DNA from: Candidatus Levyibacteriota bacterium
GTDB taxonomy: Bacteria; Patescibacteriota; Microgenomatia; Levybacterales; UBA12049
DNA length: 64,000 bases
NCBI GenBank assembly: GCA_963722305.1
Contig: CAVRKE010000001.1
Span: 501,549-565,548, forward strand
Reading direction: 5' to 3'
Shown piece by piece: positions 1,071 through 54,600 of this stretch. Every line of letters begins with the position of its first letter. The first letter of the stretch is position 1. Below the pieces are notes generated by a model. That model had not been told where the DNA came from. It saw nothing but the letters and a program-made list of their open reading frames with translations, and did not search any database. The position numbers and the translations under genes are program-made.

Positions 1071-1808
1071 TTGTACTATCAGCCAAGACCGGTTAAACCC
1101 GAGGCACTCATTTTAATGAACAGAATTGATGAGGTATATACTGCCCACCCTTTTTATGGTTCAAGACGTATGGCAAAAGAGGTTGGTGTTAACAGAAAAC
1201 AGGCACAACGCCTGATGCGTGAAATGGGCTATGAGGCATTGTATCCGAAGCCTAATTTGAGTAAACCCGATAAACAACACATGTTCTATCCGTATTTACT
1301 CAAAGGAGTAGTTGCAGGATATCCAAATCATATCTGGGGCACAGATATTACGTATATTCGGATGAAACATGGGTTTGTATATTTAACTGCCTTTCTTGAT
1401 TGGTTTACCAGATTTGTTGTTTCCTGGAAGCTCTCAATTACCCTTGAAACAGACTTTTGTTTTGATGCTGCAACTGAAGCAATTGAGAAATTCGGAAGAC
1501 CAACCATTATTAATGAAGATCAGGGATCACAAAATACCGATCATCTGATGACAGATCTCTGGGAAAATCACAATGTCAAAATCAGCATGGACTCACGGGG
1601 ACGGGCACTGGACAATATCTTCACCGAGAGGTTATGGAGGAGTGTTAAATATGAAGAGGTATACTTAAAAGAATACGCTACTGTTTTGGAAGCAAAAGAA
1701 AACATTGAAAACTATTTTTACTTTTACAATTATGAAAGAAAACACCAATCGCTTAATTACAGAACACCGGCTGAAATATATTTTGGAAAGGAGGAAAACT
1801 TAGTCTAA
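1071..1808 (+). CDS. IS3-family transposase OrfB (DDE integrase core)
   Basis: rve-type motifs: WGTDITYI (D), NEDQGSQ (D), FTERLWRSVKYE (E). The frame is already open from 930 (..LDISRSSLYYQPRP), so the TTG at 1071 is probably not the real start. OrfB is probably expressed as an OrfAB fusion. Confidence 0.85.
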   Translation: MYYQPRPVKPEALILMNRIDEVYTAHPFYGSRRMAKEVGVNRKQAQRLMREMGYEALYPKPNLSKPDKQHMFYPYLLKGVVAGYPNHIWGTDITYIRMKHGFVYLTAFLDWFTRFVVSWKLSITLETDFCFDAATEAIEKFGRPTIINEDQGSQNTDHLMTDLWENHNVKISMDSRGRALDNIFTERLWRSVKYEEVYLKEYATVLEAKENIENYFYFYNYERKHQSLNYRTPAEIYFGKEENLV

Positions 1809-15994: not shown

Positions 15995-17093
15995 GGTACA
16001 TTCTAGCTCGAAGTGCAACGATTTGAGGTTTTTGTATTCTGCATGATTTCTCCTAAAACTTCAAGTGGTATTTTCCAATCCAAACATTTTCTGGGCGTAT
16101 TATTCAGTTCCCATTCAATTAAAGCAACGTCTCTTTCGGTAATTAGATCCATGCTTATGCCTTTAGGAATAAAACGCCTGATTCTTCCATTCATATTTTC
16201 AACCGTTCCTTTTTCCCAGGAGTGATATGCATGACAGAAATATACAGACATGTCTAAGCTCTCCGTAATTTGTTTATGTTTGGTATTTTCAGCTCCATTG
16301 TCAGCAGTCAGAGTTTTTCTGATTTTGTCAGGAAAACGACTCATTCTAGCAAACAGTTTCTTAGTTTTTTCATCTGCTGTTTTAGCAGCTAGCTTTGACA
16401 TAACAGTAAGCCTTAGTTTTCTTTCAACCGTTACTGACAGGGCAGTCTTGTCAGTTTGGCGGCCTATCACATTATCTGTCTCCCAATGGCCAAGTTGTAA
16501 TCTTGTGTCAATCGATTTGGGTCTACTATCAATCGAAATAGCTTCAGGAATACGGCTATCTCTATTAACCCTTCTTCCCAGCTTTTTCATTCTTTTCTTG
16601 CGTTTTACTGTTAGATATTGCCAGAGCTTAAATTGCTTGTTCTGTGGTTTGTAGATTGCCTGATAAATAGTTTCATGGACAATTGAAAGATCGGGATGAT
16701 CTTTTGACAATCTTCCGGCAATTGTTTCAGGAGACCACTGTTTCTCTATTAGTTTCTTTTTAACATAAGAGTAGACCTCCGGTCCTTTCCAGGATGCTTG
16801 AGAGCGTTGAATAGCTGCTCTCTTATCAGCTTTTTGTTGTGCACGGCAGGGAATATATACGGCTGAAGTTTTCTCCAATCCCTTGGTATATGTTCTGTTT
16901 CTTTTGAGTTCACGAGACAGAGTGCCTTTGTTTCGTCCTAATTTATCTGCAATATCTCCCAGACTTAGTCCTGCATGCTTAAGCGCATAAAGCTCTTCCC
17001 GCTCTACAAGAGTTAAATGATTATACATAGCGCAACACCTCCTTTCGGTAATTGATTTTACCTCAAGTGTTGCACTTCGTTTTAGAACCTACC
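15995..17093 (-). mobile_element. IS30-family insertion sequence (1099 bp)
   Basis: Terminal IRs GGTACATTCTAGCTCGAAGTGCAAC (15995-) and rc GGTAGGTTCTAAAACGAAGTGCAAC (-17093). A 3-bp direct repeat TAC lies at 15992-15994 and 17094-17096. The element sits between the def genes and fmt. Confidence 0.8.
16003..17028 (-). CDS. IS30-family transposase
   Basis: 341 aa. N-terminal HTH (LTLVEREELYALKHAGLSLGDIADKLGRNKGTLSRELKRN) and a DDE core (HWETDNV.., TADNGAEN.., WEKGTVENMNG). Confidence 0.9.
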   Translation of the reverse strand: MYNHLTLVEREELYALKHAGLSLGDIADKLGRNKGTLSRELKRNRTYTKGLEKTSAVYIPCRAQQKADKRAAIQRSQASWKGPEVYSYVKKKLIEKQWSPETIAGRLSKDHPDLSIVHETIYQAIYKPQNKQFKLWQYLTVKRKKRMKKLGRRVNRDSRIPEAISIDSRPKSIDTRLQLGHWETDNVIGRQTDKTALSVTVERKLRLTVMSKLAAKTADEKTKKLFARMSRFPDKIRKTLTADNGAENTKHKQITESLDMSVYFCHAYHSWEKGTVENMNGRIRRFIPKGISMDLITERDVALIEWELNNTPRKCLDWKIPLEVLGEIMQNTKTSNRCTSS

Positions 17094-21737: not shown

Positions 21738-22475
21738 TTAGACTAAGTTTTCCTCCTTTCCAAAATATATTTCAGCCGGTGTTCTGTAATTAAGCGATTG
21801 GTGTTTTCTTTCATAATTGTAAAAGTAAAAATAGTTTTCAATGTTTTCTTTTGCTTCCAAAACAGTAGCGTATTCTTTTAAGTATACCTCTTCATATTTA
21901 ACACTCCTCCATAACCTCTCGGTGAAGATATTGTCCAGTGCCCGTCCCCGTGAGTCCATGCTGATTTTGACATTGTGATTTTCCCAGAGATCTGTCATCA
22001 GATGATCGGTATTTTGTGATCCCTGATCTTCATTAATAATGGTTGGTCTTCCGAATTTCTCAATTGCTTCAGTTGCAGCATCAAAACAAAAGTCTGTTTC
22101 AAGGGTAATTGAGAGCTTCCAGGAAACAACAAATCTGGTAAACCAATCAAGAAAGGCAGTTAAATATACAAACCCATGTTTCATCCGAATATACGTAATA
22201 TCTGTGCCCCAGATATGATTTGGATATCCTGCAACTACTCCTTTGAGTAAATACGGATAGAACATGTGTTGTTTATCGGGTTTACTCAAATTAGGCTTCG
22301 GATACAATGCCTCATAGCCCATTTCACGCATCAGGCGTTGTGCCTGTTTTCTGTTAACACCAACCTCTTTTGCCATACGTCTTGAACCATAAAAAGGGTG
22401 GGCAGTATATACCTCATCAATTCTGTTCATTAAAATGAGTGCCTCGGGTTTAACCGGTCTTGGCTGATAGTACAA
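21738..22475 (-). CDS. IS3-family transposase OrfB (copy 2)
   Basis: Protein identical to that of 1071..1808. Confidence 0.85.
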   Translation of the reverse strand: MYYQPRPVKPEALILMNRIDEVYTAHPFYGSRRMAKEVGVNRKQAQRLMREMGYEALYPKPNLSKPDKQHMFYPYLLKGVVAGYPNHIWGTDITYIRMKHGFVYLTAFLDWFTRFVVSWKLSITLETDFCFDAATEAIEKFGRPTIINEDQGSQNTDHLMTDLWENHNVKISMDSRGRALDNIFTERLWRSVKYEEVYLKEYATVLEAKENIENYFYFYNYERKHQSLNYRTPAEIYFGKEENLV

Positions 22476-22578
22476 ACTTGATCTGGAAATATCCAGAAGA
22501 TCAGCCCGTATACTCTTTGGTAATACGCTTTCTGTTTTGTTAATGTGCAGAGCAATTTCTCCGGGAGTAAGGATATCC

Positions 22579-22875
22579 CTACTCGTCGAAGATGCCCATC
22601 TTTTTTTTAAGAAAGTCTACTTCGACTTTTAATCTTCCTATTTGCCGATACAATTCCTGTACCAGCTCACGGTCATCCCGTTTCCGTTGAATAAGATGTT
22701 CTGAAAACCCTTGCGAGAGAATCTCCAACGCCCGGCGTTTCCATTTCGTTATTTGGGTTGAATGTACACCGTACATACTTGACAGCTCCGCAATTGTTTT
22801 TTGTTCCTTAATTGCCTCCAGAGCAACTCTGGCTTTAAATGCCGGTGGATGAATTCTGCGTATTTTTTGATCCAT
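22579..22875 (-). CDS. IS3-family transposase OrfA (copy 2)
   Basis: Protein identical to that of 671..967. A T8 run on the plus strand lies at 22601-22608. Confidence 0.85.
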   Translation of the reverse strand: MDQKIRRIHPPAFKARVALEAIKEQKTIAELSSMYGVHSTQITKWKRRALEILSQGFSEHLIQRKRDDRELVQELYRQIGRLKVEVDFLKKKMGIFDE

Positions 22876-23212: not shown

Positions 23213-24466
23213 TTAGATTTGTCCTTTTCGAATTTCATTCCCCCTTTGGAAAGCCAGACGACTAGGATCTCTTCCTCCATGGGATAGAATGTTGGAATGT
23301 ATGTCTGATGTGCTCGGCGTTGTTCCTCCGTTTGCACCATACCTTACTTGAGCAGGGGGAATACCTTTGCGTCTATTCCACGCTCCGCTTTCAACAAAAT
23401 TTATTAAAGTGTTTTTTAACACATGCAATCCTTCTCTAACTCTCGCCTCCATTACTGCTTTTGCATCACCGTCAAGTTGACCATCTATGGTGGAACGGCA
23501 CAAAACAGCAAGTGCTTCTACTTTTTCTATTATGGTTTTCGGGTCAACCATTTTCCCCGGTCTTAAAAAATTTGGAAGCTCAACTAGATATTTACTCATT
23601 GCAGCCACCAGGTAAGGAAGATATCTTACATCATAGCTATCCCTTCCTTCCGCTTTTAATTCTTGGGGGAAAGGAAAAAATAGAGAATTGAATATTGCAG
23701 ACCGTTCTTCTTCCAAAGACACTCGAAGGTTCCAAACGGCAACCGATTGTAAAAAACTGTCAACACCATCTTTGGGTACATATCCACTCGCAACCAATTT
23801 TTGAATACTGCCTATCGTAGGTAATCTTTGTATCACCAACGGTAAACTATTAACGGAGACAGGCAAATTCCGTTCTTTATTTGGCTGCATGAGGGTTGTT
23901 ATATTTGTAAAGGGCCTGCCTGTTGTCTCATCTAACAACCGTCCTTGAACAAGAGCAACCGCCAAGTAGTCTATTATTGTACCTTTTGTATGCGGCTCGT
24001 GTCTAGCAACTTCAAAATATGGCAACTGTTGCTCTCCCAATAAATCCTTTAAATAAGCTGGCTCCTGCTCTGAATCAGGCATGTCTGATTCAGCCACATC
24101 CGGAGATTTTCCCAGCAAACTCGCCAAATAAACGGATTGGCTATGGCTTGCTCGCCTTTCTCTATGCCAGTTATCAAACACAATTTCTCCAAGGGCAATA
24201 AAGCGCCTGGAAGGGCAAAACATCTTATCGCCAAGATGCATAATCAGTTGCTTGATGGTTAAACCCTCCGTCGGAAATGGCAACGGTTGATTTTCAAAAA
24301 CTACAGTTGCTATATACGCCGGCAGACGTAGCTCCGGATGCCTGAGTAAAAGTTCAGGGAAGTAGCGTGGATCCACAACACTTGGTGTTGGTTTTACCCA
24401 TTTTATCGAACCTGAAGATTCTTCCATTCCGTTACCAGGAAGCGCCTCAATTAGTTGTCTTTGCAT
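23213..24466 (-). CDS. Hypothetical protein (417 aa)
   Basis: Long ORF with a TTGCAT-N16-TATAAT promoter (24501-24474), 7 nt before the ATG. No recognised motif. Confidence 0.55.
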   Translation of the reverse strand: MQRQLIEALPGNGMEESSGSIKWVKPTPSVVDPRYFPELLLRHPELRLPAYIATVVFENQPLPFPTEGLTIKQLIMHLGDKMFCPSRRFIALGEIVFDNWHRERRASHSQSVYLASLLGKSPDVAESDMPDSEQEPAYLKDLLGEQQLPYFEVARHEPHTKGTIIDYLAVALVQGRLLDETTGRPFTNITTLMQPNKERNLPVSVNSLPLVIQRLPTIGSIQKLVASGYVPKDGVDSFLQSVAVWNLRVSLEEERSAIFNSLFFPFPQELKAEGRDSYDVRYLPYLVAAMSKYLVELPNFLRPGKMVDPKTIIEKVEALAVLCRSTIDGQLDGDAKAVMEARVREGLHVLKNTLINFVESGAWNRRKGIPPAQVRYGANGGTTPSTSDIHSNILSHGGRDPSRLAFQRGNEIRKGQI

Positions 24467-24513
24467 GAAGAAAATTATAGCAGAAATATTACATAATGCA
24501 ACTATAGGGTATC

Positions 24514-24763
24514 TGGCAGGCCAGGAGGGAATCGAACCCCCAACAGAGGTTTTGTCCCAGAAGTATCTCGCAAATTTTTATTGCAGGGTTGCTCAGATTC
24601 GAACTGAGAAAAGCAGTTTTGGAGACTGCTGTGATAACCATTTCACCACAACCCTTTGAAAAATTTGCTTAGAACTTCGGGATCCCGTAGATGTAAGCTT
24701 TTTCTCCGAAAAAGCAACATACTACTGGGAGAGACCTCAGTTATACCATTTAACTACTGGCCT
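24514..24763 (-). tRNA. Interrupted tRNA-Trp(CCA)-like gene: 5' part 24763-24731, 176-nt insert 24730-24555, 3' part 24554-24514 with encoded CCA
   Basis: The 5' part is AGGCCAG TA GTTAAATGGTATAAC T GAGGT CTC. The 3' part is CAAA ACCTC TGTT GGGGGTTCGATTCCCTC CTGGCCT G CCA. All four stems are complementary, and U8, A14, G18G19, T54T55C56 and A58 are present. The joined loop CTCCAAA gives anticodon CCA. Confidence 0.7.
24584..24655 (-). tRNA. tRNA-Trp (anticodon CCA), complete, nested inside the interrupted tRNA
   Basis: AGGGTTG TG GTGAAATGGTTATCAC A GCAGT CTCCAAA ACTGC TTTT CTCAGTTCGAATCTGAG CAACCCT G. The cloverleaf is canonical, with A1-U72 and G73. No CCA is encoded. Confidence 0.9.
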
Positions 24764-24771
24764 ATGACGTT

Positions 24772-24800
24772 ATTATACTGGGAATGGACAAATCTAGCAA
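24772..24800 (-). promoter_or_regulatory. Sigma70-type promoter (TTGCTA-N17-TATAAT) 8 nt upstream of the outer tRNA 5' end
   Basis: On the minus strand, TTGCTA at 24800-24795 and TATAAT at 24777-24772. The outer tRNA position +1 is at 24763. Confidence 0.5.
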
Positions 24801-24818
24801 TTGAGGAAGAAACAGGGG

Positions 24819-24995
24819 TTATTTCAGTTTTTCGTTTTCTTTGTGGTCGGTAACTTTTCTACAATGCCGGCAATATTTTTTGAGCAGCAATTTTGCCTCT
24901 GTATTCAGCTTATTTCTGGTCGTGACGTAATTTCTGTTTTTACAAACAGTGCAAACGAGCCCCAAAACTACCCTATGTTCTCCCTTTTTTGCCAT
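24819..24995 (-). CDS. rpmG: 50S ribosomal protein L33
   Basis: This 58-aa ORF falls below the track cutoff: MAKKGEHRVVLGLVCTVCKNRNYVTTRNKLNTEAKLLLKKYCRHCRKVTDHKENEKLK. It shows the L33 pattern C..C..RNY.T..N......L.LKKYC..C...T.HKE. The plus-strand track ORF 24801..25025 is antisense to it. Confidence 0.85.
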   Translation of the reverse strand: MAKKGEHRVVLGLVCTVCKNRNYVTTRNKLNTEAKLLLKKYCRHCRKVTDHKENEKLK

Positions 24996-29414: not shown

Positions 29415-30266
29415 GGGTTCTCCTACCCTGTTGGTAAAGCATGTAGCGTGTTTTGCAAGTAATGGTAAGGAGATTTAAACATTTCCGGTCTGGAAAATCT
29501 GCAGTAAAATTCACAGACATATTCTTCAAGCTTTTCTTCACTGACATGGTGGTACATCCTCCGGATAAAAGTCCTTAAAACGCCAAACATTCCTTCAATT
29601 TCAGAGGTGTTGGTAAACTCAAATTTCTTGTGAATGTCTGTCATATGGAATAGAGGATAATACTTATCAATATTTTTGTAAATAGTAGAGCCATCTGTAT
29701 TTAGTTGAGACTCTGGTTTAACGTAAGTTCTAACAAAATCAATTGCATCTTTCTTCGCTGGGGCATCAGAGGAGAGGATTTGATAAGCAAGCTTTCTGGT
29801 TCCTCTCTCCTTTCCCATGAGAAGTGCGGTATTACCAAATCTGCCAAAGTAGGCCTCATCAAGCTGGACAATATGCTCTAGAAGCCTCTGATCTCTTGGT
29901 AATTGTTCTCTGAACAAGTCAAAGTAATGTCTGACTCCCTTCTCAGACAAAGAAGTTAGATCTTCAGTCTGTTTAACCGGCATTTGTTTTGTCCAGCACC
30001 AGAGAATTAACCAAAATCTCTGCAAAGGAATCTTCACATTGCAAAGCCAGGTATGGGAAAACAGCGAGAACTTAATCTGACATTGTCTACATCTGTATCT
30101 TTTTTCAAAGCGAACAATATTCCAGGATTTGCACTTTGGACAGAAGATATTTCTACCAAAAACAGTTCTTCTGAGAAACTTTTTAATCTGGGCATCCGTA
30201 GGTACTTGTTTTAAATGGTACATAATCATATTCTAACGATTTTGTACCAACAGGGTGGGATTACCC
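29415..30266 (-). mobile_element. IS1595-family insertion sequence, intact copy B (852 bp)
   Basis: Same IRs as copy A. An 8-bp direct repeat ACAAATTC lies at 29407-29414 and 30267-30274. Confidence 0.9.
29423..30229 (-). CDS. IS1595-family transposase (intact)
   Basis: 268 aa. Zn-ribbon CPKCKS..RYRCRQC, with DDE-type residues in VQLDEAYFG, NTDGSTIY and TSEIEGMFGVLR. Confidence 0.9.
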   Translation of the reverse strand: MIMYHLKQVPTDAQIKKFLRRTVFGRNIFCPKCKSWNIVRFEKRYRCRQCQIKFSLFSHTWLCNVKIPLQRFWLILWCWTKQMPVKQTEDLTSLSEKGVRHYFDLFREQLPRDQRLLEHIVQLDEAYFGRFGNTALLMGKERGTRKLAYQILSSDAPAKKDAIDFVRTYVKPESQLNTDGSTIYKNIDKYYPLFHMTDIHKKFEFTNTSEIEGMFGVLRTFIRRMYHHVSEEKLEEYVCEFYCRFSRPEMFKSPYHYLQNTLHALPTG

Positions 30267-32346: not shown

Positions 32347-33795
32347 ATGCCCGACCAGAAAATACTAGATTATATTAAGACCGAAGAACAAAAAGGTTTT
32401 GCTAAAGCTACTATCACAACTGCTCTCTTAAAAATCGGCTGGCCACAAACACAAATCGACGAAGCTTTTGCAAGCCTTAATAATCAAACTCCGGCTGCGC
32501 CCGTAAGTCAAACTCCAAAACAAACTCCTCCCCAAATCTCTAACTACCTCCCGGGGGTAAAACAGCTTTTTGGCCAGGCTTGGCAAATTGAAAAAGACAG
32601 ATTCAAAACAATCGGGGCCATCATGCTATTTCCGTTTGCTTTTCTAATTATCGGCCTCATCGTTGGCCTTATCGGTATTTTTGCAAAACAAAATTTAATT
32701 GCAATTGCCGTGATTGGCATTGCTGCCCTTTTCACGATTGTTTTTAACATTTGCGCTCCAATTGCGCTGATACTGGCAATTAAATACAGGCATGAAAAAA
32801 TTGGCTTTAGGCAAGCTTATACAAAAAGCATCGGCAAGGCAATCCCGTTAATTATTCTTTCTATTTTATCCGGACTTATAGCCCTTACCGGCCTTATTCT
32901 TTTTATAGTTCCAGCGTTTATTTTTGGCATCTGGTTTAGCATGGCAATTTATGCATTGGTAAGCGATGATGCCGGAATAATTGCATCATTAAAATTAAGC
33001 AAACAATACGTAAACGGTAAGTTTTTTGCCGTACTTTATCGGTTTATCGGCTTTAGTATTATCATCTTTTTGCTTTCTCTATTGATTGGTCTGATTCCTA
33101 TTGTTAATTTATTTTTGGGGATTATAAATTTGCTGGTACTTAGTCCCCTTTCCACAATTTATAGTTATTTGCTCTATGAAAACCTGAAAAATTTGAACGG
33201 AAAACCGATTTCGAATCAGCCAAGCAAACTGTTTGTCTCGCTTATTCTATTTTTATTAGCCTTGATTGCATTTCTGCTTTTGCTGGTTTTAGCCTATGTG
33301 ATACCAAATTTAATTAAAAACTACAGCAAGCCACCAACAGCTTATCAATACAAACAAACTCTGCCAAATAAGAATTTGAATTCTCTTCCTGCTCAGACTC
33401 CTATGCCGACTCAAAGTGTGAATCCATCGCAAATTCCTGCTCCGATTGAGGCTACTGGTTCGGCCGAAACTCCTACCTGCACTATTGACTGGAGTAATTT
33501 CCCGCCCTTGATAATCACTGGGCAACCATATACGTTTTCGGTTATGTTTAATTCCAATTTCGGCACAGCCATGCCCTCTGTCTATATCTATCCTGGCGGA
33601 CAGGCTCTCTACCGAGACAGCAATTCTTCCGGCTCTAATTTAAATTCGGTAACTGTAACCGTTGGCCTTACAGGCCCGACAAACGGGACCTACACTCTTA
33701 AACCATATCTTGATAATTCTTCCGCACAAGGTGTTGAGTGCAACGAAAAAACATTTACTGTCGGGGAACAAAATCAACCTTCCCCAACTCCTTAA
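32347..33795 (+). CDS. Polytopic membrane protein with a Pro/Thr-rich linker and a C-terminal extracellular domain, function unknown
   Basis: 482-aa ORF with several long hydrophobic helices between residues ~95 and ~325. Confidence 0.6.
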   Translation: MPDQKILDYIKTEEQKGFAKATITTALLKIGWPQTQIDEAFASLNNQTPAAPVSQTPKQTPPQISNYLPGVKQLFGQAWQIEKDRFKTIGAIMLFPFAFLIIGLIVGLIGIFAKQNLIAIAVIGIAALFTIVFNICAPIALILAIKYRHEKIGFRQAYTKSIGKAIPLIILSILSGLIALTGLILFIVPAFIFGIWFSMAIYALVSDDAGIIASLKLSKQYVNGKFFAVLYRFIGFSIIIFLLSLLIGLIPIVNLFLGIINLLVLSPLSTIYSYLLYENLKNLNGKPISNQPSKLFVSLILFLLALIAFLLLLVLAYVIPNLIKNYSKPPTAYQYKQTLPNKNLNSLPAQTPMPTQSVNPSQIPAPIEATGSAETPTCTIDWSNFPPLIITGQPYTFSVMFNSNFGTAMPSVYIYPGGQALYRDSNSSGSNLNSVTVTVGLTGPTNGTYTLKPYLDNSSAQGVECNEKTFTVGEQNQPSPTP

Positions 33796-37908: not shown

Positions 37909-40089
37909 ATGAGCGTAGAGCAGCACAGACGCACCAACAGAGAGACTCTTGCCGAGGCTTTTTCGCTTGAAAAACAAGCCGCGGGCGCAATAGCGGGGAG
38001 ATTACATTTAATACCGCTACATGAAAGACAAGAAACGGAAACTGTTAAGCTGACTTTTGCATCATTCGGAGTAGTAGGCGCATGCGGCCAAACCGGCCGG
38101 CTTTATATCGAGAGGACTGCTCTTGGCTCCCCCACTCTTCCCATTACTGCAGTTGATTTGGTAGAGCCTACGAAAAGAGGAATAGAATTCCCCGACAGCG
38201 TTAAATTTTCTAGCGATTTAGCTTCAATTTTGCAAAGAAAAGACAGACCCGAAGCTTTTATTCTTGCGACCACTAATCCCATTGATAAACTACTTGAAAC
38301 TTTTAGAGATAACCTTGACGACAGACATATCACTTTGATTCTTCCTCAAAATGGAGTTGACGTTGTACCAAAAGCTCAAGAAATATTAAAAGGTAAAAAC
38401 GTAACTTTAATAAGAGCAAGCTTATTTACACCGGTTGATACTGAGCCGGATGGAAAAATTAAATATCCGGAGGACAAATTAAGAATAGGGCTTTCTTTAG
38501 TCAGGCCGGAAGGAGATATTGCCGATCCCGAAAAAGAGAAAGAACTTCAAAAGGCGGTAGAAACGTTTAGACGAGGAGGTTTTGACGCTAAAATTTTTGA
38601 GAACTATGTCAGCATGGAATGGACAAAGTTAGTTTTGAATGCGGTTGGCATAACAGGAGGTATTGTCGGCATTTCACCAAAAGAAGTTTACAATGACCAC
38701 GCCCTGTATCTACTGGAAACGCAGGCGCTGCACGATAGATTAAGAATTTTGGAAGCAGCCGGAATTAAATTAGAACATATTCCCTGGGGCGGAGCCGCAC
38801 TTTTACCTACATATGATTCTCTCCCTGGACTAATAAGAAAAAGTCATTTGGCGCAATTCCTTTATGGCCAGAAAGTGATTGCCGGCAGAGGGAATAAGCC
38901 TTCATCGGTTGGAATCAATATTCAAAAAGGAACCCCAACTGAGGGAATTACTTATCTTGAACCATTTGTCAAACTTGGAGAAACGGTTGGACTGCGATCA
39001 ATTGTCGATGAAGCGATGATTGAAATCATTCAAGGAAATTATACATTTATAACTCGTCGCAAAAACGACGTTGATACTCAAGAAAGAAAAATTGATTTGG
39101 CAGATTTTAGCCTCGAAGAGAGAAGAACGCTTTTGTTTGAAACTATTAGAAAACTAAGCCAAAAACCGCCAACCCGCCTGGACCGACTTGAAGGCAGAAT
39201 ATTTGCCGAAGGAGCGAAAAGATTTCTTCGTTACAGGATTATTGATCCACGCAACTACAGAGAGCGAACAGCTGAAGTTTTGCATCCAAAAAATGCTGAA
39301 GAAAAACCAGGTGAGGTGGTTGAAGGATTAAATCATGGAGACATGTCTGACTCTATTCACGGAATGGAATTAAATTTCACGATAGATGATATTGCCCATG
39401 CCTATGGCATGGATACTTTTTGGCATTACGATCGAACAAGAGGAAAAAAATATACCAGACTTTATGCTTGGGTAGAAGCTAAAGTGACAGCGGCAACCGG
39501 TATGCGAACCTACCACATCTTAAGGGAAAAAGATTTTGAATATTACCGAACCCACCGCGGAGCTATAGAAGGAAAAGCTCCTGAAGAATATAGCGGCCCA
39601 TCCTACAGAAAAATCAGGGAAAGACTTAAAAAAGAAGGCGGAATTTTTCTAATTGCTCCAGAGGCAACCAGAACTTTAACCGGCGAGCTAAATAGAGCTC
39701 AACCTGCAGGACTATTTTTAGAAACAAAGGACTTCAAGGAACGGGGCGTTTATCTTCCGGTAGGACTTGTCCCGACTTCTATCAAAGTCCCTTATCCCGA
39801 GAGAAGAAGTCTCGCCCAAAAAGCTAAACGCTTTTTGGCTAAAACAGAAATTAGAGTAGGAAAGCCTGTAACCTACGCTGAAATTATCCAAGATATGACA
39901 ATTGTCAATGAAGGCATAAAAGCTGTAAATAACCAAAGAGGAGAAAATGAGCAACTCGAATTAATGACCATAAGCGACATGATGATGCTTTATATCGCTA
40001 GGGTTCTTCCTCCACAGTATTGGGGATACTATAAAGAATACGTTCAATTCATGCCAAAAAATAATGGCAACGCTCCCCTAGCCACCTAA
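37909..40089 (+). CDS. Fusion protein: ketopantoate-reductase (ApbA/PanE)-like N-terminal half plus PlsC-type acyltransferase-like C-terminal half
   Basis: The N-terminal half has a Rossmann motif VVGACGQTG and MEWTKLVLNAVG (the W.KL..N motif of PanE). The C-terminal half has NHGDMSD (H-x4-D) and IAPEATRT (an FPEGTR-like motif). A TTGACA-N17-TAAAAT promoter lies at 37863-37891. Confidence 0.5.
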   Translation: MSVEQHRRTNRETLAEAFSLEKQAAGAIAGRLHLIPLHERQETETVKLTFASFGVVGACGQTGRLYIERTALGSPTLPITAVDLVEPTKRGIEFPDSVKFSSDLASILQRKDRPEAFILATTNPIDKLLETFRDNLDDRHITLILPQNGVDVVPKAQEILKGKNVTLIRASLFTPVDTEPDGKIKYPEDKLRIGLSLVRPEGDIADPEKEKELQKAVETFRRGGFDAKIFENYVSMEWTKLVLNAVGITGGIVGISPKEVYNDHALYLLETQALHDRLRILEAAGIKLEHIPWGGAALLPTYDSLPGLIRKSHLAQFLYGQKVIAGRGNKPSSVGINIQKGTPTEGITYLEPFVKLGETVGLRSIVDEAMIEIIQGNYTFITRRKNDVDTQERKIDLADFSLEERRTLLFETIRKLSQKPPTRLDRLEGRIFAEGAKRFLRYRIIDPRNYRERTAEVLHPKNAEEKPGEVVEGLNHGDMSDSIHGMELNFTIDDIAHAYGMDTFWHYDRTRGKKYTRLYAWVEAKVTAATGMRTYHILREKDFEYYRTHRGAIEGKAPEEYSGPSYRKIRERLKKEGGIFLIAPEATRTLTGELNRAQPAGLFLETKDFKERGVYLPVGLVPTSIKVPYPERRSLAQKAKRFLAKTEIRVGKPVTYAEIIQDMTIVNEGIKAVNNQRGENEQLELMTISDMMMLYIARVLPPQYWGYYKEYVQFMPKNNGNAPLAT

Positions 40090-48720: not shown

Positions 48721-51531
48721 ATGAAGAAAAAAATAACCTTTGGCCTGCTCTTATTTTTTTTGTCTGTCAGTTTATTTTGGAATTTACCCGAGGTTAAAGC
48801 AGCCGGTTTTACCAGCGCCTATCTAAGGCTGAATAACCAAACTCCAAGCTCGGCTCTTGCGGGCACTGTTTGTGCCCAACCTTCTTCACCGGGTGCCGGC
48901 AGCGAAAGTAAAATCAGCCTTTCTTTTCCCGATGATTTTACAGTTTCGGGAAACACCAGCAACTGGACTACTAATGTTACCAATCTTCCTTCCGGTTCCA
49001 CACCCTGGCCATCAATCGGCAACCCCGCCGTCAGTATTTCTGGCCAGTCTGTCACATTCTCAAGCGGCGATTTAACCGCCGGCACTATTTACTGCTTTAA
49101 TTTTAACGGCGCTTCCTCGACCACCGGCGCTGTCGGCAATGATAAGACCGGTGCTCTAACAAGCAAAAATTCTTCGGATGTTATTATTGACCAGTCTGCT
49201 TATGCTGTCTCTATCGTTTCCAGTAACCAAATTGGAATTTCGGCCACTGTCTCGCCCGCGGCCTCCGACCTGCCGATCTCGATTGAATCAACTACTGTCG
49301 GCAACAATTTTCCGCAAAACACCATTTTGGACTATAAAATTACCTACGGTTCATTAACGGTCGGACCTTTCCCCTTAACTATTCAGGCCGAGTGGTCGCA
49401 AGGAACAATTGATGGTAGCCCTACGCCCTCAGTTGACCTTTTAAATTACGTCATCGGCAGTGCTTCGAATGCTTATGACGCAGCTCCGGCCGTAGTTGAT
49501 ACTACCAACCGAACTATCACCTGGACCATTAATTCTTTTCCCGGCAATACTGTTGGCCAGACGGTTACTTTTGAGCTGGAAACCAATGATTCTTATACCG
49601 GCAGCGAAGTTGTCAGTTTTAATGTGGCGGCCAGAAGCATGTCGGAGACAACGATTACTCCCGACCAGACAGTTAGCCAAACCTATCTTTACAGCACAGG
49701 GATTGAGCCAACCCCCACTCCCGCCCCCCCAACGGCCACGCCTACTCCCGGTACAAGTAGCAGCACCAGCACTATTACGCCAACCACCACTCCCACTGTC
49801 GCTTCCTCGCCCAGCCTGGCTTTTTCGGCGATTTCAATTCAGTCTCTATCGCAGTCCCAGGCCCAAATCGACGTTTCCACCACCAACAATGCAACTATCA
49901 CCGTCCAATATGGCACTGGCATCAATGCCCTTTCACAAAGTATTACTACTTCTTTGCCGACCAGCGAAGCTTTGCTAACCCTCCCAAACCTCACAGCCGA
50001 TACCAATTATTATTACCGCGTCACTGCCAAGGATGCTTTTGGCAACGTTATTAAGTCCGACATCTTTACTTTTAAAACTGCCGTTATCTCCCAAGCTACG
50101 CTGGCTGACCTGCAATCACTGATTGTCACCAGCAACAACAACATTTTACTTAACCCACAGACCGAAAAAATCACCACCGGTAATACCGTTTACTCGGTGG
50201 TTATTCCGCAGTTAAGCATTTTTGAAATTCATTTTTCGCTGACAAAATACGTGCCGATAAAAAATATCCAGGTAATCATCGAGAACAAACACGTTTTAGG
50301 CGCCAACACCTTTACTCCGCAGACGGCTGCTTCTAATTTTGTCGATTTGGTAGAAACCCAACCGGGGGTTTTCACCGGAAGGCTGTTAAGTCAACAAACT
50401 CCGGGAGTCTACGAGCTGTATGCCAAAATAGTCGACTACAACGGCAATATTACACTACAAAAAATAACGGACATCGTGGTTGTGCCGGAATTTAAGGTGC
50501 TTGAAAAAGGCACCAATAACCCCATCGAAGCTGCCAGAATACTGCTTTATCTGTATAACCCGACGACCAGAATTTACGAGGTTATTTCTCCGCAAATCCT
50601 GCCTATTAATAACCCTTTGTTTTCCCAGCCTAACGGAGTCGTCCCCATTGTTTTGCCCAAAGGGCAATACAAGGCGGATATTTCAGCCATTAATTACCAG
50701 TCCCAAACTGTGACGTTTGCAGTCGGGGCCACTTCTGGAAACTATCCGACTGTCTACCTGCAAAATCAACCATTCAGTCTGACTAATTATGTCAATTTCT
50801 TTCTTACCACGCTTTCCGATTACGTAATATCAAGCCAACAAACTTTAAGCCAGTTTTCTGCTTCAAGCCGCCTATTTGCCTTTTTGGAAGGCTTAACTTT
50901 ACTCGGCTTTGTCTTTTTAGCTTTTCTCTCCTTTTCGGCCAGGACGCACATTTCCCTACCCTATATTCCTTACTTTTTCTTCCATAAACTCAAGCAGCTA
51001 TTGTTTAAAGAAAATTCGCTGACCATTGGCAAAGTTTACGACGAGGTCACTCAAGCTCCGGTTTCAAAAGCACTGGTGTATATTATTGATGCGAAAAAGA
51101 ACAGCCTGATAGCGCATCTTCGAACCAACCGGCTGGGCGAATTTTACTGCCGAAAATTCGCAGCTGTCGACAAAATAAAGATTACCGTCGTCAAAAAAGG
51201 TTTTATCGCTAAGGCCCCGCTTGAATATAGCCAAAAAAGCTTGAGTGTTATGCCGATTAGCATCGCTTTGGAGAAAGATCTTACTTATCGAAAATCGGTG
51301 ATTGAGCTTTTGCTTTTGGCTATTGAGAACATTTTTGGTGCTTTTATGGAATTTACTCTGGTTCTGACAATTATTCTGGAGCTGTATTTTATCCCACCCT
51401 TAGGAATTCTCAAAGTGTCTCCTTTCCTGGCATTATCGATTTTTAACGTTGTTCTTTTAATTCTTTACCTCTACAAACCACGCAGTTTGATGTTCAAAAA
51501 TCCTCTGATAGAACAAGATCTTGCTGCTTAG
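48721..51531 (+). CDS. Large surface protein (936 aa): signal peptide, Thr/Pro linker, FN3-like module, carboxypeptidase-regulatory-like modules, C-terminal TM helices
   Basis: Signal peptide FFLSVSLFWNLPEVKA|AG. A PTPTPAPPTATPTPGTSSSTSTITPTTTPT linker. ..TADTNYYYRVTAKDAFGN.. is FN3-like. ..GKVYDEVTQAPVSKALVYIID....TNRLGEFY is CarboxypepD_reg-like. Confidence 0.65.
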   Translation: MKKKITFGLLLFFLSVSLFWNLPEVKAAGFTSAYLRLNNQTPSSALAGTVCAQPSSPGAGSESKISLSFPDDFTVSGNTSNWTTNVTNLPSGSTPWPSIGNPAVSISGQSVTFSSGDLTAGTIYCFNFNGASSTTGAVGNDKTGALTSKNSSDVIIDQSAYAVSIVSSNQIGISATVSPAASDLPISIESTTVGNNFPQNTILDYKITYGSLTVGPFPLTIQAEWSQGTIDGSPTPSVDLLNYVIGSASNAYDAAPAVVDTTNRTITWTINSFPGNTVGQTVTFELETNDSYTGSEVVSFNVAARSMSETTITPDQTVSQTYLYSTGIEPTPTPAPPTATPTPGTSSSTSTITPTTTPTVASSPSLAFSAISIQSLSQSQAQIDVSTTNNATITVQYGTGINALSQSITTSLPTSEALLTLPNLTADTNYYYRVTAKDAFGNVIKSDIFTFKTAVISQATLADLQSLIVTSNNNILLNPQTEKITTGNTVYSVVIPQLSIFEIHFSLTKYVPIKNIQVIIENKHVLGANTFTPQTAASNFVDLVETQPGVFTGRLLSQQTPGVYELYAKIVDYNGNITLQKITDIVVVPEFKVLEKGTNNPIEAARILLYLYNPTTRIYEVISPQILPINNPLFSQPNGVVPIVLPKGQYKADISAINYQSQTVTFAVGATSGNYPTVYLQNQPFSLTNYVNFFLTTLSDYVISSQQTLSQFSASSRLFAFLEGLTLLGFVFLAFLSFSARTHISLPYIPYFFFHKLKQLLFKENSLTIGKVYDEVTQAPVSKALVYIIDAKKNSLIAHLRTNRLGEFYCRKFAAVDKIKITVVKKGFIAKAPLEYSQKSLSVMPISIALEKDLTYRKSVIELLLLAIENIFGAFMEFTLVLTIILELYFIPPLGILKVSPFLALSIFNVVLLILYLYKPRSLMFKNPLIEQDLAA

Positions 51532-51622: not shown

Positions 51623-54600
51623 TTATTGAGTCGGTGTTATGGTTGGAGTTGAAGATTCAACCTGATTTAGAATTGATTGGAACGCCGCCGACTGGGTCGC
51701 TTGCGGTTCGGGTGTGGGCACTACCGGCTCCAGTCCCGCAGTTTTGGCATCCTGGACTGAAAGCGCCACCCAGGAAAAGTTAATATCTTCGGGTGCGGGT
51801 TTATTCAGCCGAATTGTAAATCCCTGGGTAGTTCTATCGGTAATCACATAAGAAAGATTACCGTTAAGGATGGCATCTTCCAAAGCTTTCTGGGCCACCT
51901 GGTCATTTATTTTGTCAAGGGCAATACTGGCAGTGACAACCGGTGTGTCGGCATACTCGTTGTCAAAAGTCACCGAAACAGTATCCTCTCCCTGCTTAAT
52001 CACCGCAAATCCGGCCGTATCGCTGTTGAAAGTCGGAGTTGAATTAAATCTGACGTTACCCTTAAACACCACGTCGTTCATAAAGTAACTAAAGCCGGAA
52101 ACGAGGAAATTATTGGTCGTCAGACTATCAAGAACATTCAAAGCGCCCTGGATAAGGCCGTTACCCGCAACATTTAAGTCGGCCGAAATAGTGGCCAAAC
52201 CGTTAACGTTCAAATCGGAAAGGTTGAGGGTTGAGGGAAGGGTTGTTGTCGCCGATGGCGTGGCTGTTGCCAATTCTCCGCTTTGAGTGGCATCGGAAAG
52301 AACCGCTACGCTATTAGATAGTGCTGAAATTTGGTTGGTCAGTATTTCCAAACCCTCAATATGGTCGGCCCTGATGGTTTTGGCAGTAATTAAGTCGGCG
52401 ACAATTTCCGGGCTGATTACCTCGCCGGCCGCCACTGTTCCGGTGAAAACTTCCGAAGAATTAAACGCTGCCGAACCGGCGTCCTTAAGGCTTTGCAGGT
52501 ATACCAAAGTATTTTGGTCACCGCTGGAAATTTGGTTCATGTAGGAATCAAGGCCGGTATCCCCATAGATATCGGCAAACCCCGCACTGGTCGAAGCCAC
52601 AAAGTTTTCGTCCGCCATTGCCAGCTCGACACTTTCGCCGTTATAGCTGGTTAAGTTAACAAAGACCGTGATAGTTCCGCATTGGGTGGTTGACAAACTG
52701 CCTGCCCCTTGGGCCGGACAATCGGAAACTTCGGTTGGGTCGGTCGGGTCAAAATCCTCAATAGCAGTTCCCAACACTCTGCCGGCCACCGTGGCTTTCA
52801 TCGCGTAACCGGGAATTGAAGACGATGTCAGGTAATCACCGGAATGGATTGGCCCGTTTTCGGTGGAAACCAGCACGGGCACGCGTCCCACAAGGGCGAT
52901 GGGATAAGAATCCGGTGTGTAAGCACCCGCTACGAATCCCGGGTCTGTTGAAACCACTCCCATGATGTTACTTTGGTATTGCATAGTTGACTGAATCACA
53001 TTTTGTGCATTAAATTGGTCGCCGACCACCACTTCTCCCGGATTTAAAGTTTGGGTGGAGGTGTAATTTTCCGCTAAATCCGCCCCGCCCGAGTTCCACG
53101 CCCCGCCTGCGGCTGTGTAAGCCTGTCCGTCGGCGGCAAACCTAAAGGCATTCATTCCTTCACTGGTTAAAGTCAAAATATTCGGGTCTGTGGTATTTGC
53201 CAGTCTCCAGTACTGCAAAGTTGGCGTCTGTATCTGCCTATAATAATCAACTGAACCTCCGCTATCTATTCCTGACCAAACTCTCTCTTTCTCATAAGGC
53301 ATATTTGGCATTGTTCCAGTAAGGGTAAACTTAAACTGCGCCCAGGTGTCGCCGGCATTTGGATTAATCAATCCACCGGCTTTTTCGACATCATTCCAGT
53401 TGGTGGCCGTCATGGCGGCCAAACTTGAACCGGTTCTTGATTGGACTCCGATTGCCCCCTGCCCGACATTTTTCCAGTCGAGCGAAGTATTGGCAGTAAG
53501 GTTATTGGAATTTATTGGTTCAGTCACATACGTCCCCTGTAAATTCCAGCCGGCATCAATGATCATTGTATTGGAACTGCCTCCTACAATGACTACAAAT
53601 TTTCCATCCGGTCTTTGAAAAACATTTGTGCCCGCAGCTAAATTGCTAGGCGAAGGTAACGTCGGGCCTGCCCAAGTTCCTCCTACAACCTGTACAGAAG
53701 GGTCCACAATTGTTGTCGAGGTTGCCCCGCCGTTTGCCCACAGTATTTTTCCATCCGGCAAAGGAATTGTAAATGCGCCCGCTCCGGCATTGGCAGACAA
53801 AACTTCACCGAGCGCGGCGGTAAACGTACCAAGTCTTGCATCATAAAGATAAATCGTAGTCGCGGCTGTTCCTCTGGTTTGCAGCCAGTTGCCGTTGGAA
53901 ATTTGCACAGTGGTTGCGTTTGCCCCGTATGCAGCAGTGGTAGCAGGGCCAACAACAAAAGAGTTGCTTGATTCTTCATAGATATCGGTTACCGCACTGG
54001 TCCCTAAAAAGACAAGGTATTTTCCGTCAGGCCTTTTAATGCTGTAGGCTCCAGCGGTGACCGTTGATGTAGTGGCCGGACCGGCTGTAAATGAATTTAA
54101 GAACGGGTCGTAAATGTTGGTATTGGCTGTTGCACCTCCCAAAATTATCAGAAATCTTCCATCAGAGCGCAAAATAGCATGAGCGCCTGCGCCAATTGCG
54201 GCTGTTACGCTAGGTCCGGCGAAAAAAATATTTCTGACCGGATCATAAATATCTGTAAGCTGAGAGGCGCCTATAAACAACATAAACTGCCCGTTGGGTA
54301 AAGGTATCGAGAATGAACCGGTATTCGGATTGCTCGCCCCAACCGTTGTCGGACCGACAGTGAACAAACCGGTAGTCGAATCATACATTCTGGTTGCGTT
54401 TGAATTACCAGCTAAGATAATCAAAAACTTACCGTTTGGCAACTGTAGAGTGTGGGACCCTGTTCCAGCAGTGCCGCCCAAGTCCGCCGAGGCAGATGCA
54501 ACAATAATATCGGCATTAGAACTTGGCACGCTGCCATTTTCAAACGTTGCCAAAGTAACGGAATCGGAATCGCCAGTAACTGTTCCGTTAAAAACCGCGC

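Follow-up and report, generated by a model that had tools for sequence, protein, structure and literature searches.

The window analysed here, a stretch of 64,000 nucleotides (nt) from a Candidatus Levyibacteriota genome, contains on its minus strand a tRNA-Trp gene that is interrupted within its anticodon and carries a second, complete tRNA-Trp gene in the interruption. The locus lies just downstream of rpmG, the L33 gene (24995-24819). A 176-bp non-autonomous insertion element splits the rpmG-linked tRNA-Trp(CCA) exactly between C34 and C35, and 104 of its 176 nt (24730-24555) lie outside the tRNA that it carries. The interrupted gene is referred to as the outer tRNA and the carried gene as the inner tRNA. 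From upstream to downstream, the locus comprises the following features:

24772-24800, minus strand: native sigma-70-type promoter of the tRNA-Trp locus (TTGCTA, 17 nt, TATAAT), agreeing with the consensus at 10 of 12 positions
24731-24763, minus strand: 5' half of the outer, ancestral tRNA-Trp(CCA), termed type O, with the acceptor 5' strand, D arm, anticodon-stem 5' strand and loop nucleotides C32 U33 C34
24683-24730, minus strand: module A, a 48-nt bulged hairpin in the minimum free energy (MFE) fold, TCCC-A-GTAG-T-ATGT-T-GCTTTTTC GGA GAAAAAGC-TT-ACAT-CTAC-GGGA
24656-24682, minus strand: 5' arm of module B (TCCCGAAGTTCTAAGC) and leader of the inner tRNA (AAATTTTTCAA), pairing with 24583-24555
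24584-24655, minus strand: inner, complete tRNA-Trp(CCA), termed type I, with A1-U72 and G73 and no encoded CCA, called by ARAGORN and scoring 63.4 bits against RF00005
24555-24583, minus strand: trailer of the inner tRNA (CAATAAAAATTT) and 3' arm of module B (GCGAGATACTTCTGGGA, with two bulged nucleotides)
24517-24554, minus strand: 3' half of the outer tRNA-Trp, with loop nucleotides C35 A36 A37 A38, anticodon-stem 3' strand, variable region, T arm, acceptor 3' strand and discriminator G73
24509-24516, minus strand: CCAGATAC, directly 3' of the outer tRNA and including an encoded CCA at 24516-24514

An initial annotation, made from the letters alone, had claimed that the flanking parts join into a canonical 74-nt tRNA-Trp(CCA), and its coordinates and sequences were found as given when re-read. 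Joining 24763-24731 (AGGCCAGTAGTTAAATGGTATAACTGAGGTCTC) to 24554-24514 (CAAAACCTCTGTTGGGGGTTCGATTCCCTCCTGGCCTGCCA) indeed yields a 74-nt molecule that ARAGORN calls as tRNA-Trp(cca). Once the insert is removed, the outer tRNA has a cloverleaf with all four stems perfect (0 mismatches), the CCA anticodon, A1-U72 and G73. A stand-alone 71-nt gene identical to the outer tRNA occurs in three relatives (L019, L024, L069) and scores 65.6 bits with Rfam model RF00005, for which the gathering score is 29 bits; the outer 5' half likewise shows no difference from the corresponding part of their uninterrupted tRNA. The promoter was also located where the annotation had it (24800-24772), with 8 nt between its end and the outer +1, and presumably drives the whole composite. 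The left-end 8-mer of the element, TCCCAGTA, overlaps the -10 box of this promoter (TTCCCAGTATAAT, 24776-24783, minus strand), as it also does at the empty sites of L069 and L001, which may be a coincidence or may be tied to targeting.

The encoded CCA of the outer copy, present as annotated, probably belongs to a relic trailer that a previous nesting round left behind, rather than forming a designed 3' end. This suggestion comes from the likeness of CCAGATAC to the trailer GC-AAGATACTTCTGGGA behind an inner type-O tRNA in L008 and to GCC-AAGATACTTCACGAA|CAAAACTGC in L023, a likeness that spans 8-10 nt only.

The inner gene has the cloverleaf, CCA anticodon, A1-U72 and G73 of a bacterial tRNA-Trp, and the ARAGORN call and Rfam score bear out the annotated complete tRNA-Trp(CCA) at 24655-24584. 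The intron-permissive ARAGORN check that had been proposed gave a divided answer: the native sequence returns the inner tRNA only, and the outer tRNA-Trp appears when the halves are joined beforehand. Within the insert, module A runs from TCCC-A-G... to ...C-GGGA, and module B abuts it, running from TCCCG... to ...C-T-GGGA with the tRNA at its tip; both hairpins thus stand on TCCC/GGGA feet. The junctions with the outer tRNA are flush with the feet of the two hairpins, and the 5' end of the insert does not pair with the 3' exon. The folding check suggested for the 250-nt unit gave an MFE of -92 kcal/mol, compared to -63.4 ± 4.3 kcal/mol for shuffled sequences (z = -6.6), with both cloverleaves formed. 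A search for an internal promoter within the window copy of the insert returned none, and no second copy of the element was found in the 64-kb window.

The nature of the insert is revealed by comparison with relatives. Through the L33 gene, we recovered 80 loci from species-representative genomes, whose titles are mostly Levybacteria/Levyibacteriota, Microgenomates and Patescibacteria, with many others labelled "uncultured Gammaproteobacteria"; the exact L33 protein sequence itself matched no database record. Most of these loci share the order tRNA-Thr, tRNA-Tyr, tRNA-Thr, rpmG, tRNA-Trp, and in most of them tRNA-Trp starts about 55 nt past rpmG, which is where the outer tRNA starts in the window. 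An uninterrupted type-O gene is present in L001, L019, L024 and L069 (alignment A1), and in L069 and L001 it is preceded by the same promoter as in the window. The empty-site alleles for which the annotation had advised looking at the rpmG-downstream locus therefore exist in close relatives. Relative to these, the window and one further locus, L023, are longer by 176 bases placed between C34 and C35, with nothing duplicated and nothing lost (A1). Filled and empty alleles with exact junctions identify the insert as a DNA insertion. Type I, in turn, is the ordinary tRNA-Trp gene of many other relatives, and several very different tRNA-Trp types exist. Between the window and L023, the outer tRNA differs at 0 of 74 positions and the non-tRNA parts of the insert at 9 of 103; the intergenic flanks are about 60-70% alike, a rough estimate by eye, around a composite that is almost identical.

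The nine closest relatives by L33 (L001-L009) have at least four tRNA-Trp types that are 62-72% identical to one another, some of them on the other strand or distant from rpmG. In this set the tRNA-Trp alleles are out of step with the gene next to them, although the short L33 offers poor resolution. A separate observation concerns a segment of about 60-80 nt, conserved and rich in hairpins (CTACGTTCAGCTCGC...GAACGTAGCGAGCATGAAC.GTAGCCTGCTAC), that starts immediately past the tRNA-Trp discriminator-plus-C in L024 (2913-3040), L001, L030 and L011 (alignment A4). It adjoins tRNA-Trp bodies of differing types (O or I, about 65% identical), and a small open reading frame (ORF) resembling GIY-YIG proteins trails it in L024, L030 and L011 and is not evident in L001. 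As judged from these alignments, the tRNA body looks to have been exactly swapped between conserved flanks.

The element in the window is one member of a family that numbers more than 70 copies, collected from genomes and metagenomes, in the loops of tRNA-Trp, Cys, Tyr, Thr (three anticodons), Val and Pro genes. Dozens of such nests, in which one tRNA gene lies within another, occur in Levybacteria-type small groundwater bacteria. Twelve of the 80 rpmG loci carry one: in tRNA-Trp (L023, L008, L078), in tRNA-Thr(UGU) (L022, L027, L033, L034, L050, L059), in tRNA-Thr(GGU) (L018, L024), and in L032, whose tRNA-Trp cargo sits in a different element. A search pattern derived from the first hairpin, TCCCAGYA-N5-TTGC-N18-33-TRCGGGATCC, matched 71 metagenome-contig loci, all but a handful of them within tRNA genes. 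Carriage by phages is not indicated, as the module-A pattern had 0 matches among 2.9 million viral contigs; a looser three-motif DNA pattern gave 20 matches in the viral contigs, all of which were rejected as chance occurrences in coding sequence. The insertion points (^) are:

tRNA-Trp: CTC^CAAA
tRNA-Cys: CTG^CAAA
Tyr-like relic: CTG^TAAA
tRNA-Thr(UGU): TTTTG^TAAAC
tRNA-Thr(CGU): TTTCG^TAAA
tRNA-Thr(GGU): TTGG^TAA
tRNA-Val and tRNA-Pro: D loop

The point is fixed within each tRNA species and differs between species (34/35, 35/36 or D loop), and no target-site duplication is found in any family member. In every copy with a readable interior, the inner anticodon equals the outer one and both genes have the same orientation. 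The second module usually holds the tRNA. The few cargo-less copies (L103 and L113 in tRNA-Tyr, L119 in the D loop of tRNA-Val) have an intact tRNA of the same anticodon at most 500 nt away. In L032, a GC-rich palindromic element unlike the two-hairpin family has a tRNA-Trp as cargo and occupies the CTC^CAAA site as well; since a different element uses the identical point, this hints that the target site, and not the element alone, sets the position. Small GC-rich palindromic inserts of a second family (CCTGCC(C/T)GC...GCGGGCAGG), to which this L032 element belongs, pepper decayed outer halves in L008 (~867-910), L032, L033, L078, L129 and L148.

The hairpins are conserved in structure. In module A, compensatory double changes are seen at 11 of 20 pairs and the bulged A is invariant (alignment A2, built from 34 of 62 distinct module-A sequences). 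Covariation is seen at the base of module B as well. The initial annotation had described an 11-bp stalk joining the two ends of the insert and a hairpin CTaCGG-GATC-CCGaAG. Both exist in the window copy, but they do not represent the conserved fold, which consists of two side-by-side hairpins. Across the family, each end of the element is invariably matched by one half of the central palindrome, the 5' end by the left half and the 3' end by the right (arm table), while the two ends are often mismatched with each other, so that the end-to-end stalk is a feature of the window copy and not of the family. Likewise, the terminal inverted repeats TCCCAG(T/A)AGTAT found at both insert ends in the window copy are reduced to TCCCAG(Y/W)A as the only part common family-wide. 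Exceptions to pairing are G-U in 8 cases and A-C in 8, which gives no sign of selection on the sense RNA alone; the hairpins could act as DNA single strands. Module-B linkers beside the cargo tRNA often repeat 6-7 nt of one acceptor strand (on the 3' side in L160, L112, L104 and L121, on the 5' side in L008 and L127), so that the module-B hairpin can extend into the acceptor stem; in the window copy, by contrast, the inner tRNA is flanked by a leader-trailer helix of its own, 10 bp long (GCAAATTTTT/AAAAATTTGC). An extended -10-like motif, TGnTAnAAT, is located in the module-A loop 31-41 nt before the inner tRNA in 26 of 37 Thr and Cys copies. Trp copies, including that in the window, are devoid of it and presumably depend on the old promoter.

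Such a structured insert in an anticodon loop could also be read as intron-like, with the 176 nt removed from the precursor, the outer halves ligated and both tRNAs working, the inner one as a passenger comparable to the C/D-box RNAs in archaeal tRNA-Trp introns. Bacterial group I introns occupy the anticodon loop (PMC13011429; 10.1101/2020.01.27.920355). The insert has exact junctions, inner and outer tRNA invariably share one orientation, the hairpins covary, and the outer tRNA is flawless in both the window and L023 (0/74 differences versus 9/103 in the spacers). However, models of group I introns, group II introns and self-cleaving ribozymes find nothing in the insert even at E ≤ 10, and the intron-model searches that had been proposed are thus negative. 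RF00028 has no match in the whole window at the gathering score or in 24400-24900 at E ≤ 10, and Rfam at both thresholds returns tRNA matches only, which led us to reject a group I, group II or ribozyme origin. The boundaries disagree as well: the exon ends in ...CUC and the insert in ...GGGA, hence in C and A, and no alternative boundary gives CCA with the U and G of group I introns. A bulge-helix-bulge (BHB) intron was rejected because its two 3-nt bulges around a 4-bp helix are absent from the folds and from the arm table. Only 104 nt of the insert are non-tRNA, the insertion point shifts between tRNA species, the G-U and A-C exceptions are balanced, and a same-anticodon passenger in every copy would be needless for an intron that is spliced. 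Together with the decay of the outer copies described below (33 of 55 broken, against 0 inner ones), this makes an intron-like arrangement improbable.

Which of the two tRNAs works is indicated by how they age. Once the element is excised, 22 of 55 outer genes can still be called as tRNAs; the other 33 are broken, with further insertions, deletions or odd T loops. Among 18 distinct outer genes that are still recognised, there are 18 stem mismatches compared to 7 in their inner partners, and several of the 7 are the usual D-stem mismatch of tRNA-Cys. In the pair L101/L165, the inner tRNAs are identical and the outer halves differ at 8 of 75 positions, with pairs broken. The inner tRNA is intact in every complete copy, and none of the family copies examined combines a degenerate inner gene with an intact outer one. 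Since the outer copies decay and the inner one is never the decayed partner, we infer from these sequences that the inner tRNA is the gene under selection, the working copy, and that the outer halves are a relic.

The annotation had weighed two readings, an insertion that brings its own replacement tRNA, and an intron or split-tRNA arrangement in which RNase P and RNase Z release the inner tRNA. The empty alleles, the same-anticodon cargo throughout the family and the outer decay support the former; the latter is not supported, for lack of a ribozyme match, of a BHB motif and of maintained outer copies. Of the second reading, the rejoining of the outer halves is unlikely, and the release of the inner tRNA from a long precursor by RNase P and 3' processing is retained as very likely.

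It might be argued that the composite is maintained by the host, the outer halves and hairpins serving as a processing or regulatory scaffold for the inner tRNA, such as an RNase III or RNase P entry site or an attenuator. The long leader-trailer helix, the very stable fold and the conserved hairpin A would suit such a role. The closest relatives, however, use a plain gene behind the same promoter, the outer halves decay freely, and the modules also occur without cargo, so that we regard a scaffold as very improbable. A chance resemblance or an assembly chimera, the latter named by the initial annotation as a possible refutation, is practically negligible: beyond general caution with metagenome assemblies nothing speaks for it, L023 has the same architecture, as do dozens of assemblies obtained independently by many projects, the joined tRNA corresponds to real stand-alone genes, and the fold lies 6.6 standard deviations below the shuffles (z = -6.6).

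Nesting has occurred repeatedly and in both orders, type I within type O in the window and L023, and type O within type I in L008 and L118. The outer gene of L118 keeps the leader GCAAATTTTTAA, which is the one beside the inner gene in the window. Behind the type-O outer gene of L023 come a degenerate element end (AGATACTTCACGAA) and then the 3' half of an older type-I gene. L158 is a triple nest in tRNA-Pro, and L119 consists of layered relics, among them a decayed tRNA that encloses a cassette with a GIY-YIG ORF and an intact tRNA-Val.

The presence of nuclease genes raises the possibility of homing, in which a free-standing small GIY-YIG or PD-(D/E)XK nuclease would cut uninterrupted alleles and repair from the filled allele would copy the cassette, with the hairpins as passengers or as nuclease-related signals. 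GIY-YIG (PF01541) ORFs are found in at least 8 nest loci, PDDEXK_5 (PF11645) ORFs in 3 loci, where they start about 45 nt past the outer tRNA-Thr, and ORFs of the 23S_rRNA_IVP family in 5 nest loci; these are raw neighbour-gene counts with no background rate. PF11645 is the family of the tRNA-fMet intron endonuclease I-Ssp6803I. Endonucleases of PF11645 have been described in cyanobacterial tRNA-fMet introns (PMC13011429). The L119 cassette, the constancy of the site within each tRNA species, the different GC-rich element of L032 at the same CTC^CAAA site, and the near-identity of the window and L023 composites between flanks that are by eye only 60-70% alike would all agree with homing. On the other hand, a regular-expression search, the only kind made, revealed no GIY-YIG or PDDEXK_5 type nuclease ORF in the 64-kb window, where a 23S_rRNA_IVP gene is likewise absent, and the nuclease counts lack a background control. 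Moreover, one hairpin backbone is shared by unrelated tRNA species (Trp, Cys, Tyr, Thr, Val, Pro), jumps that need non-homologous insertion, and staggered nuclease cuts alone give no exact, loss-free junctions. We therefore consider homing a rather unlikely explanation. As a side observation, the gap between tRNA-Thr(UGU) and tRNA-Tyr measures 420-500 nt in many relatives (L003, L006, L015, L016, L019, L039, L051-L053), and in L101 (6926-7297) it holds a PDDEXK_5 (PF11645) ORF directly after a nested tRNA-Thr.

Overall, we favour the interpretation that a replacement-carrying insertion element has split the tRNA-Trp gene, and that the inner tRNA works and the outer one is a relic, with a probability of roughly 80%. 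The old promoter would yield a precursor transcript of about 250 nt, from which RNase P, 3' processing and CCA addition would free the inner tRNA as the cell's present tRNA-Trp. By carrying a tRNA, the element would let the cell survive a hit that would otherwise kill it, the target being an essential and presumably single-copy gene, and the cell could not lose the element afterwards, a hostage-and-replace strategy. Repeated rounds would leave nested relics in the manner of Russian dolls. For integration, our best guess, to which the data lend weak support, is that the bulged hairpins, folded as single strands, are recognised along with exposed loops of tRNA genes by an enzyme acting in trans, which joins the DNA without staggered cuts. 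Spread between genomes might be aided by recombination through the conserved tRNA flanks and possibly by nuclease-driven homing. Tentatively, and with less than even confidence, we propose that the element is the non-autonomous form of an undescribed single-phosphodiester, duplication-free integration system, whose same-anticodon cargo takes an essential single-copy gene hostage and thereby drives serial, horizontally transmitted tRNA replacement across Microgenomates, with nested relics and exactly exchanged tRNA bodies between conserved flanks as its traces.

Several points weigh against a replacement-carrying element. It has no ORF and no integration enzyme of its own, and in about 1 Mb of fetched loci we found neither a larger autonomous copy with the same ends nor an end-to-end (circle or tandem) junction GGGA|TCCC (CTGGGATCCCAG). 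The lack of duplication and the one fixed phosphodiester per tRNA species match no characterised transposase. The outer tRNA of the window is still flawless, and is identical in L023 while the insert spacers differ at 9 of 103 positions; as far as sequence alone can tell, it may still function. Finally, our view is limited to 64 kb of the genome, and a second tRNA-Trp gene elsewhere is possible. We examined the difference between 0/74 and 9/103 as a signal of constraint on the outer tRNA and rejected it, because type O is identical in several empty-site species; it is further discounted by the far more diverged flanks of the window and L023 and by pairs of the L101/L165 kind, which drift with broken stems. 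A perfect outer relic fits a recent insertion and a young family member, and is no proof of function.

The remainder of the window is rich in insertion sequences (IS), which is notable for a genome of the Candidate Phyla Radiation (CPR) type. IS genes lie at 1071-1808 (plus strand), 21738-22875 (minus), 16003-17028 (minus) and 29423-30229 (minus), and comprise two IS3-family copies with identical ORF length, one IS30-like and one IS1595-like gene. Large ORFs without a Pfam family (E ≤ 1e-5) are located at 51623-60676 (minus; the largest, 3017 aa), 48721-51531 (plus), 37909-40089 (plus), 32347-33795 (plus) and 23213-24466 (minus). The last, a 417-aa ORF for which the default threshold of 1e-3 was used, lies directly downstream of the composite, at a place where we expected secE-nusG.

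If this interpretation is correct, a tiny element colonises an essential single-copy gene by destroying and replacing it, and the host then cannot shed the element. This would explain why tRNA-Trp genes of about 65% identity occupy the same locus in the closest relatives, as defined by the short rpmG/L33 gene, and would provide a concrete route for horizontal tRNA-gene turnover in genome-reduced CPR bacteria, as well as a bacterial, DNA-level counterpart to the debate on the origin of split and intron-bearing tRNA genes. For annotation, standard finders report the inner gene only and miss the relic halves, and intron-aware finders could mistake such loci for tRNAs that contain an intron. Should the integration chemistry prove to be new (exact, duplication-free and loop-targeted), it could be useful for targeted insertion.

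The initial annotation knew of no described bacterial example, and we found none either: open-access full texts and bioRxiv yielded no nested or interrupted tRNA genes of this kind, only group I introns that interrupt CPR/Patescibacteria tRNA genes (PMC13011429; 10.1101/2020.01.27.920355). An earlier description elsewhere is possible, and the family of tRNA-loop-specific, replacement-bringing elements is apparently undescribed. The group I introns of bacterial tRNA genes resemble it in being anticodon-loop intervening sequences with exact junctions, co-oriented and in the same phylum. In contrast to them, the insert has no ribozyme core, U(-1) or omega-G, comprises only about 100 nt of non-tRNA sequence, carries a whole tRNA, and is not neutrally spliced, as its exons decay.

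Among mobile elements, genomic islands and prophages of the tyrosine-integrase type integrate into tRNA genes at anticodon-loop and T-loop sublocations. They share with our element the targeting of a tRNA gene whose function is kept by incoming tRNA sequence. The insert differs in that it brings a whole gene and not a 3' segment, has neither direct repeats nor an integrase, measures 176 bp and leaves the old gene as two complementary halves. A tRNA-targeting integrase element was rejected on these grounds, the insert being without an ORF and its flanks being complementary halves. Miniature inverted-repeat transposable elements (MITEs) and palindrome-associated elements, derived from DDE or IS200/IS605 transposons, are likewise small and ORF-less, have inverted-repeat or hairpin ends and form families across genomes. 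A DDE-type MITE was rejected: inverted repeats are present, but there is no target-site duplication, and the insert is not dispersed (one copy in the window, the family almost only in tRNA loops) and carries a cargo gene. IS200/IS605 elements also make no target duplication and have hairpins. The conserved 4-5-nt target at their left end, however, appears to be missing here, as the left flanks vary (GTCTC, GTCTG, TTTTG, TTTCG, TTGG, TCAG), and cleavage would fall at the hairpin foot with no spacer. No Y1 (HUH) transposase was noticed among the recurrent neighbours, although no search aimed at Y1 was made.

The bacterial 23S rRNA intervening sequences (IVS) are extended hairpins at the tip of a native hairpin loop, sporadically distributed, and the rRNA remains functional though fragmented. 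They too are hairpins at the loop of a stable RNA gene, and 23S_rRNA_IVP ORFs recur near the nests, but a cut in the anticodon loop leaves a tRNA unable to decode, and here a gene is provided to replace it. SegB, a free-standing GIY-YIG nuclease of the phage T4 tRNA cluster, drives the preferential inheritance of the linked tRNA region (PMC2330249). The likeness lies in a GIY-YIG nuclease gene beside tRNA genes; the differences are that SegB belongs to a phage co-infection system without nesting, and that no nuclease gene lies in or near the window element. The eukaryotic Dada DNA transposons, which target tRNA and snRNA genes (PMC3706591), have a similarly strict one-site specificity within small-RNA genes. 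They differ from the element described here in their autonomous DDE transposase, in their 6-7-bp duplications and multicopy targets, and in bringing no replacement gene.

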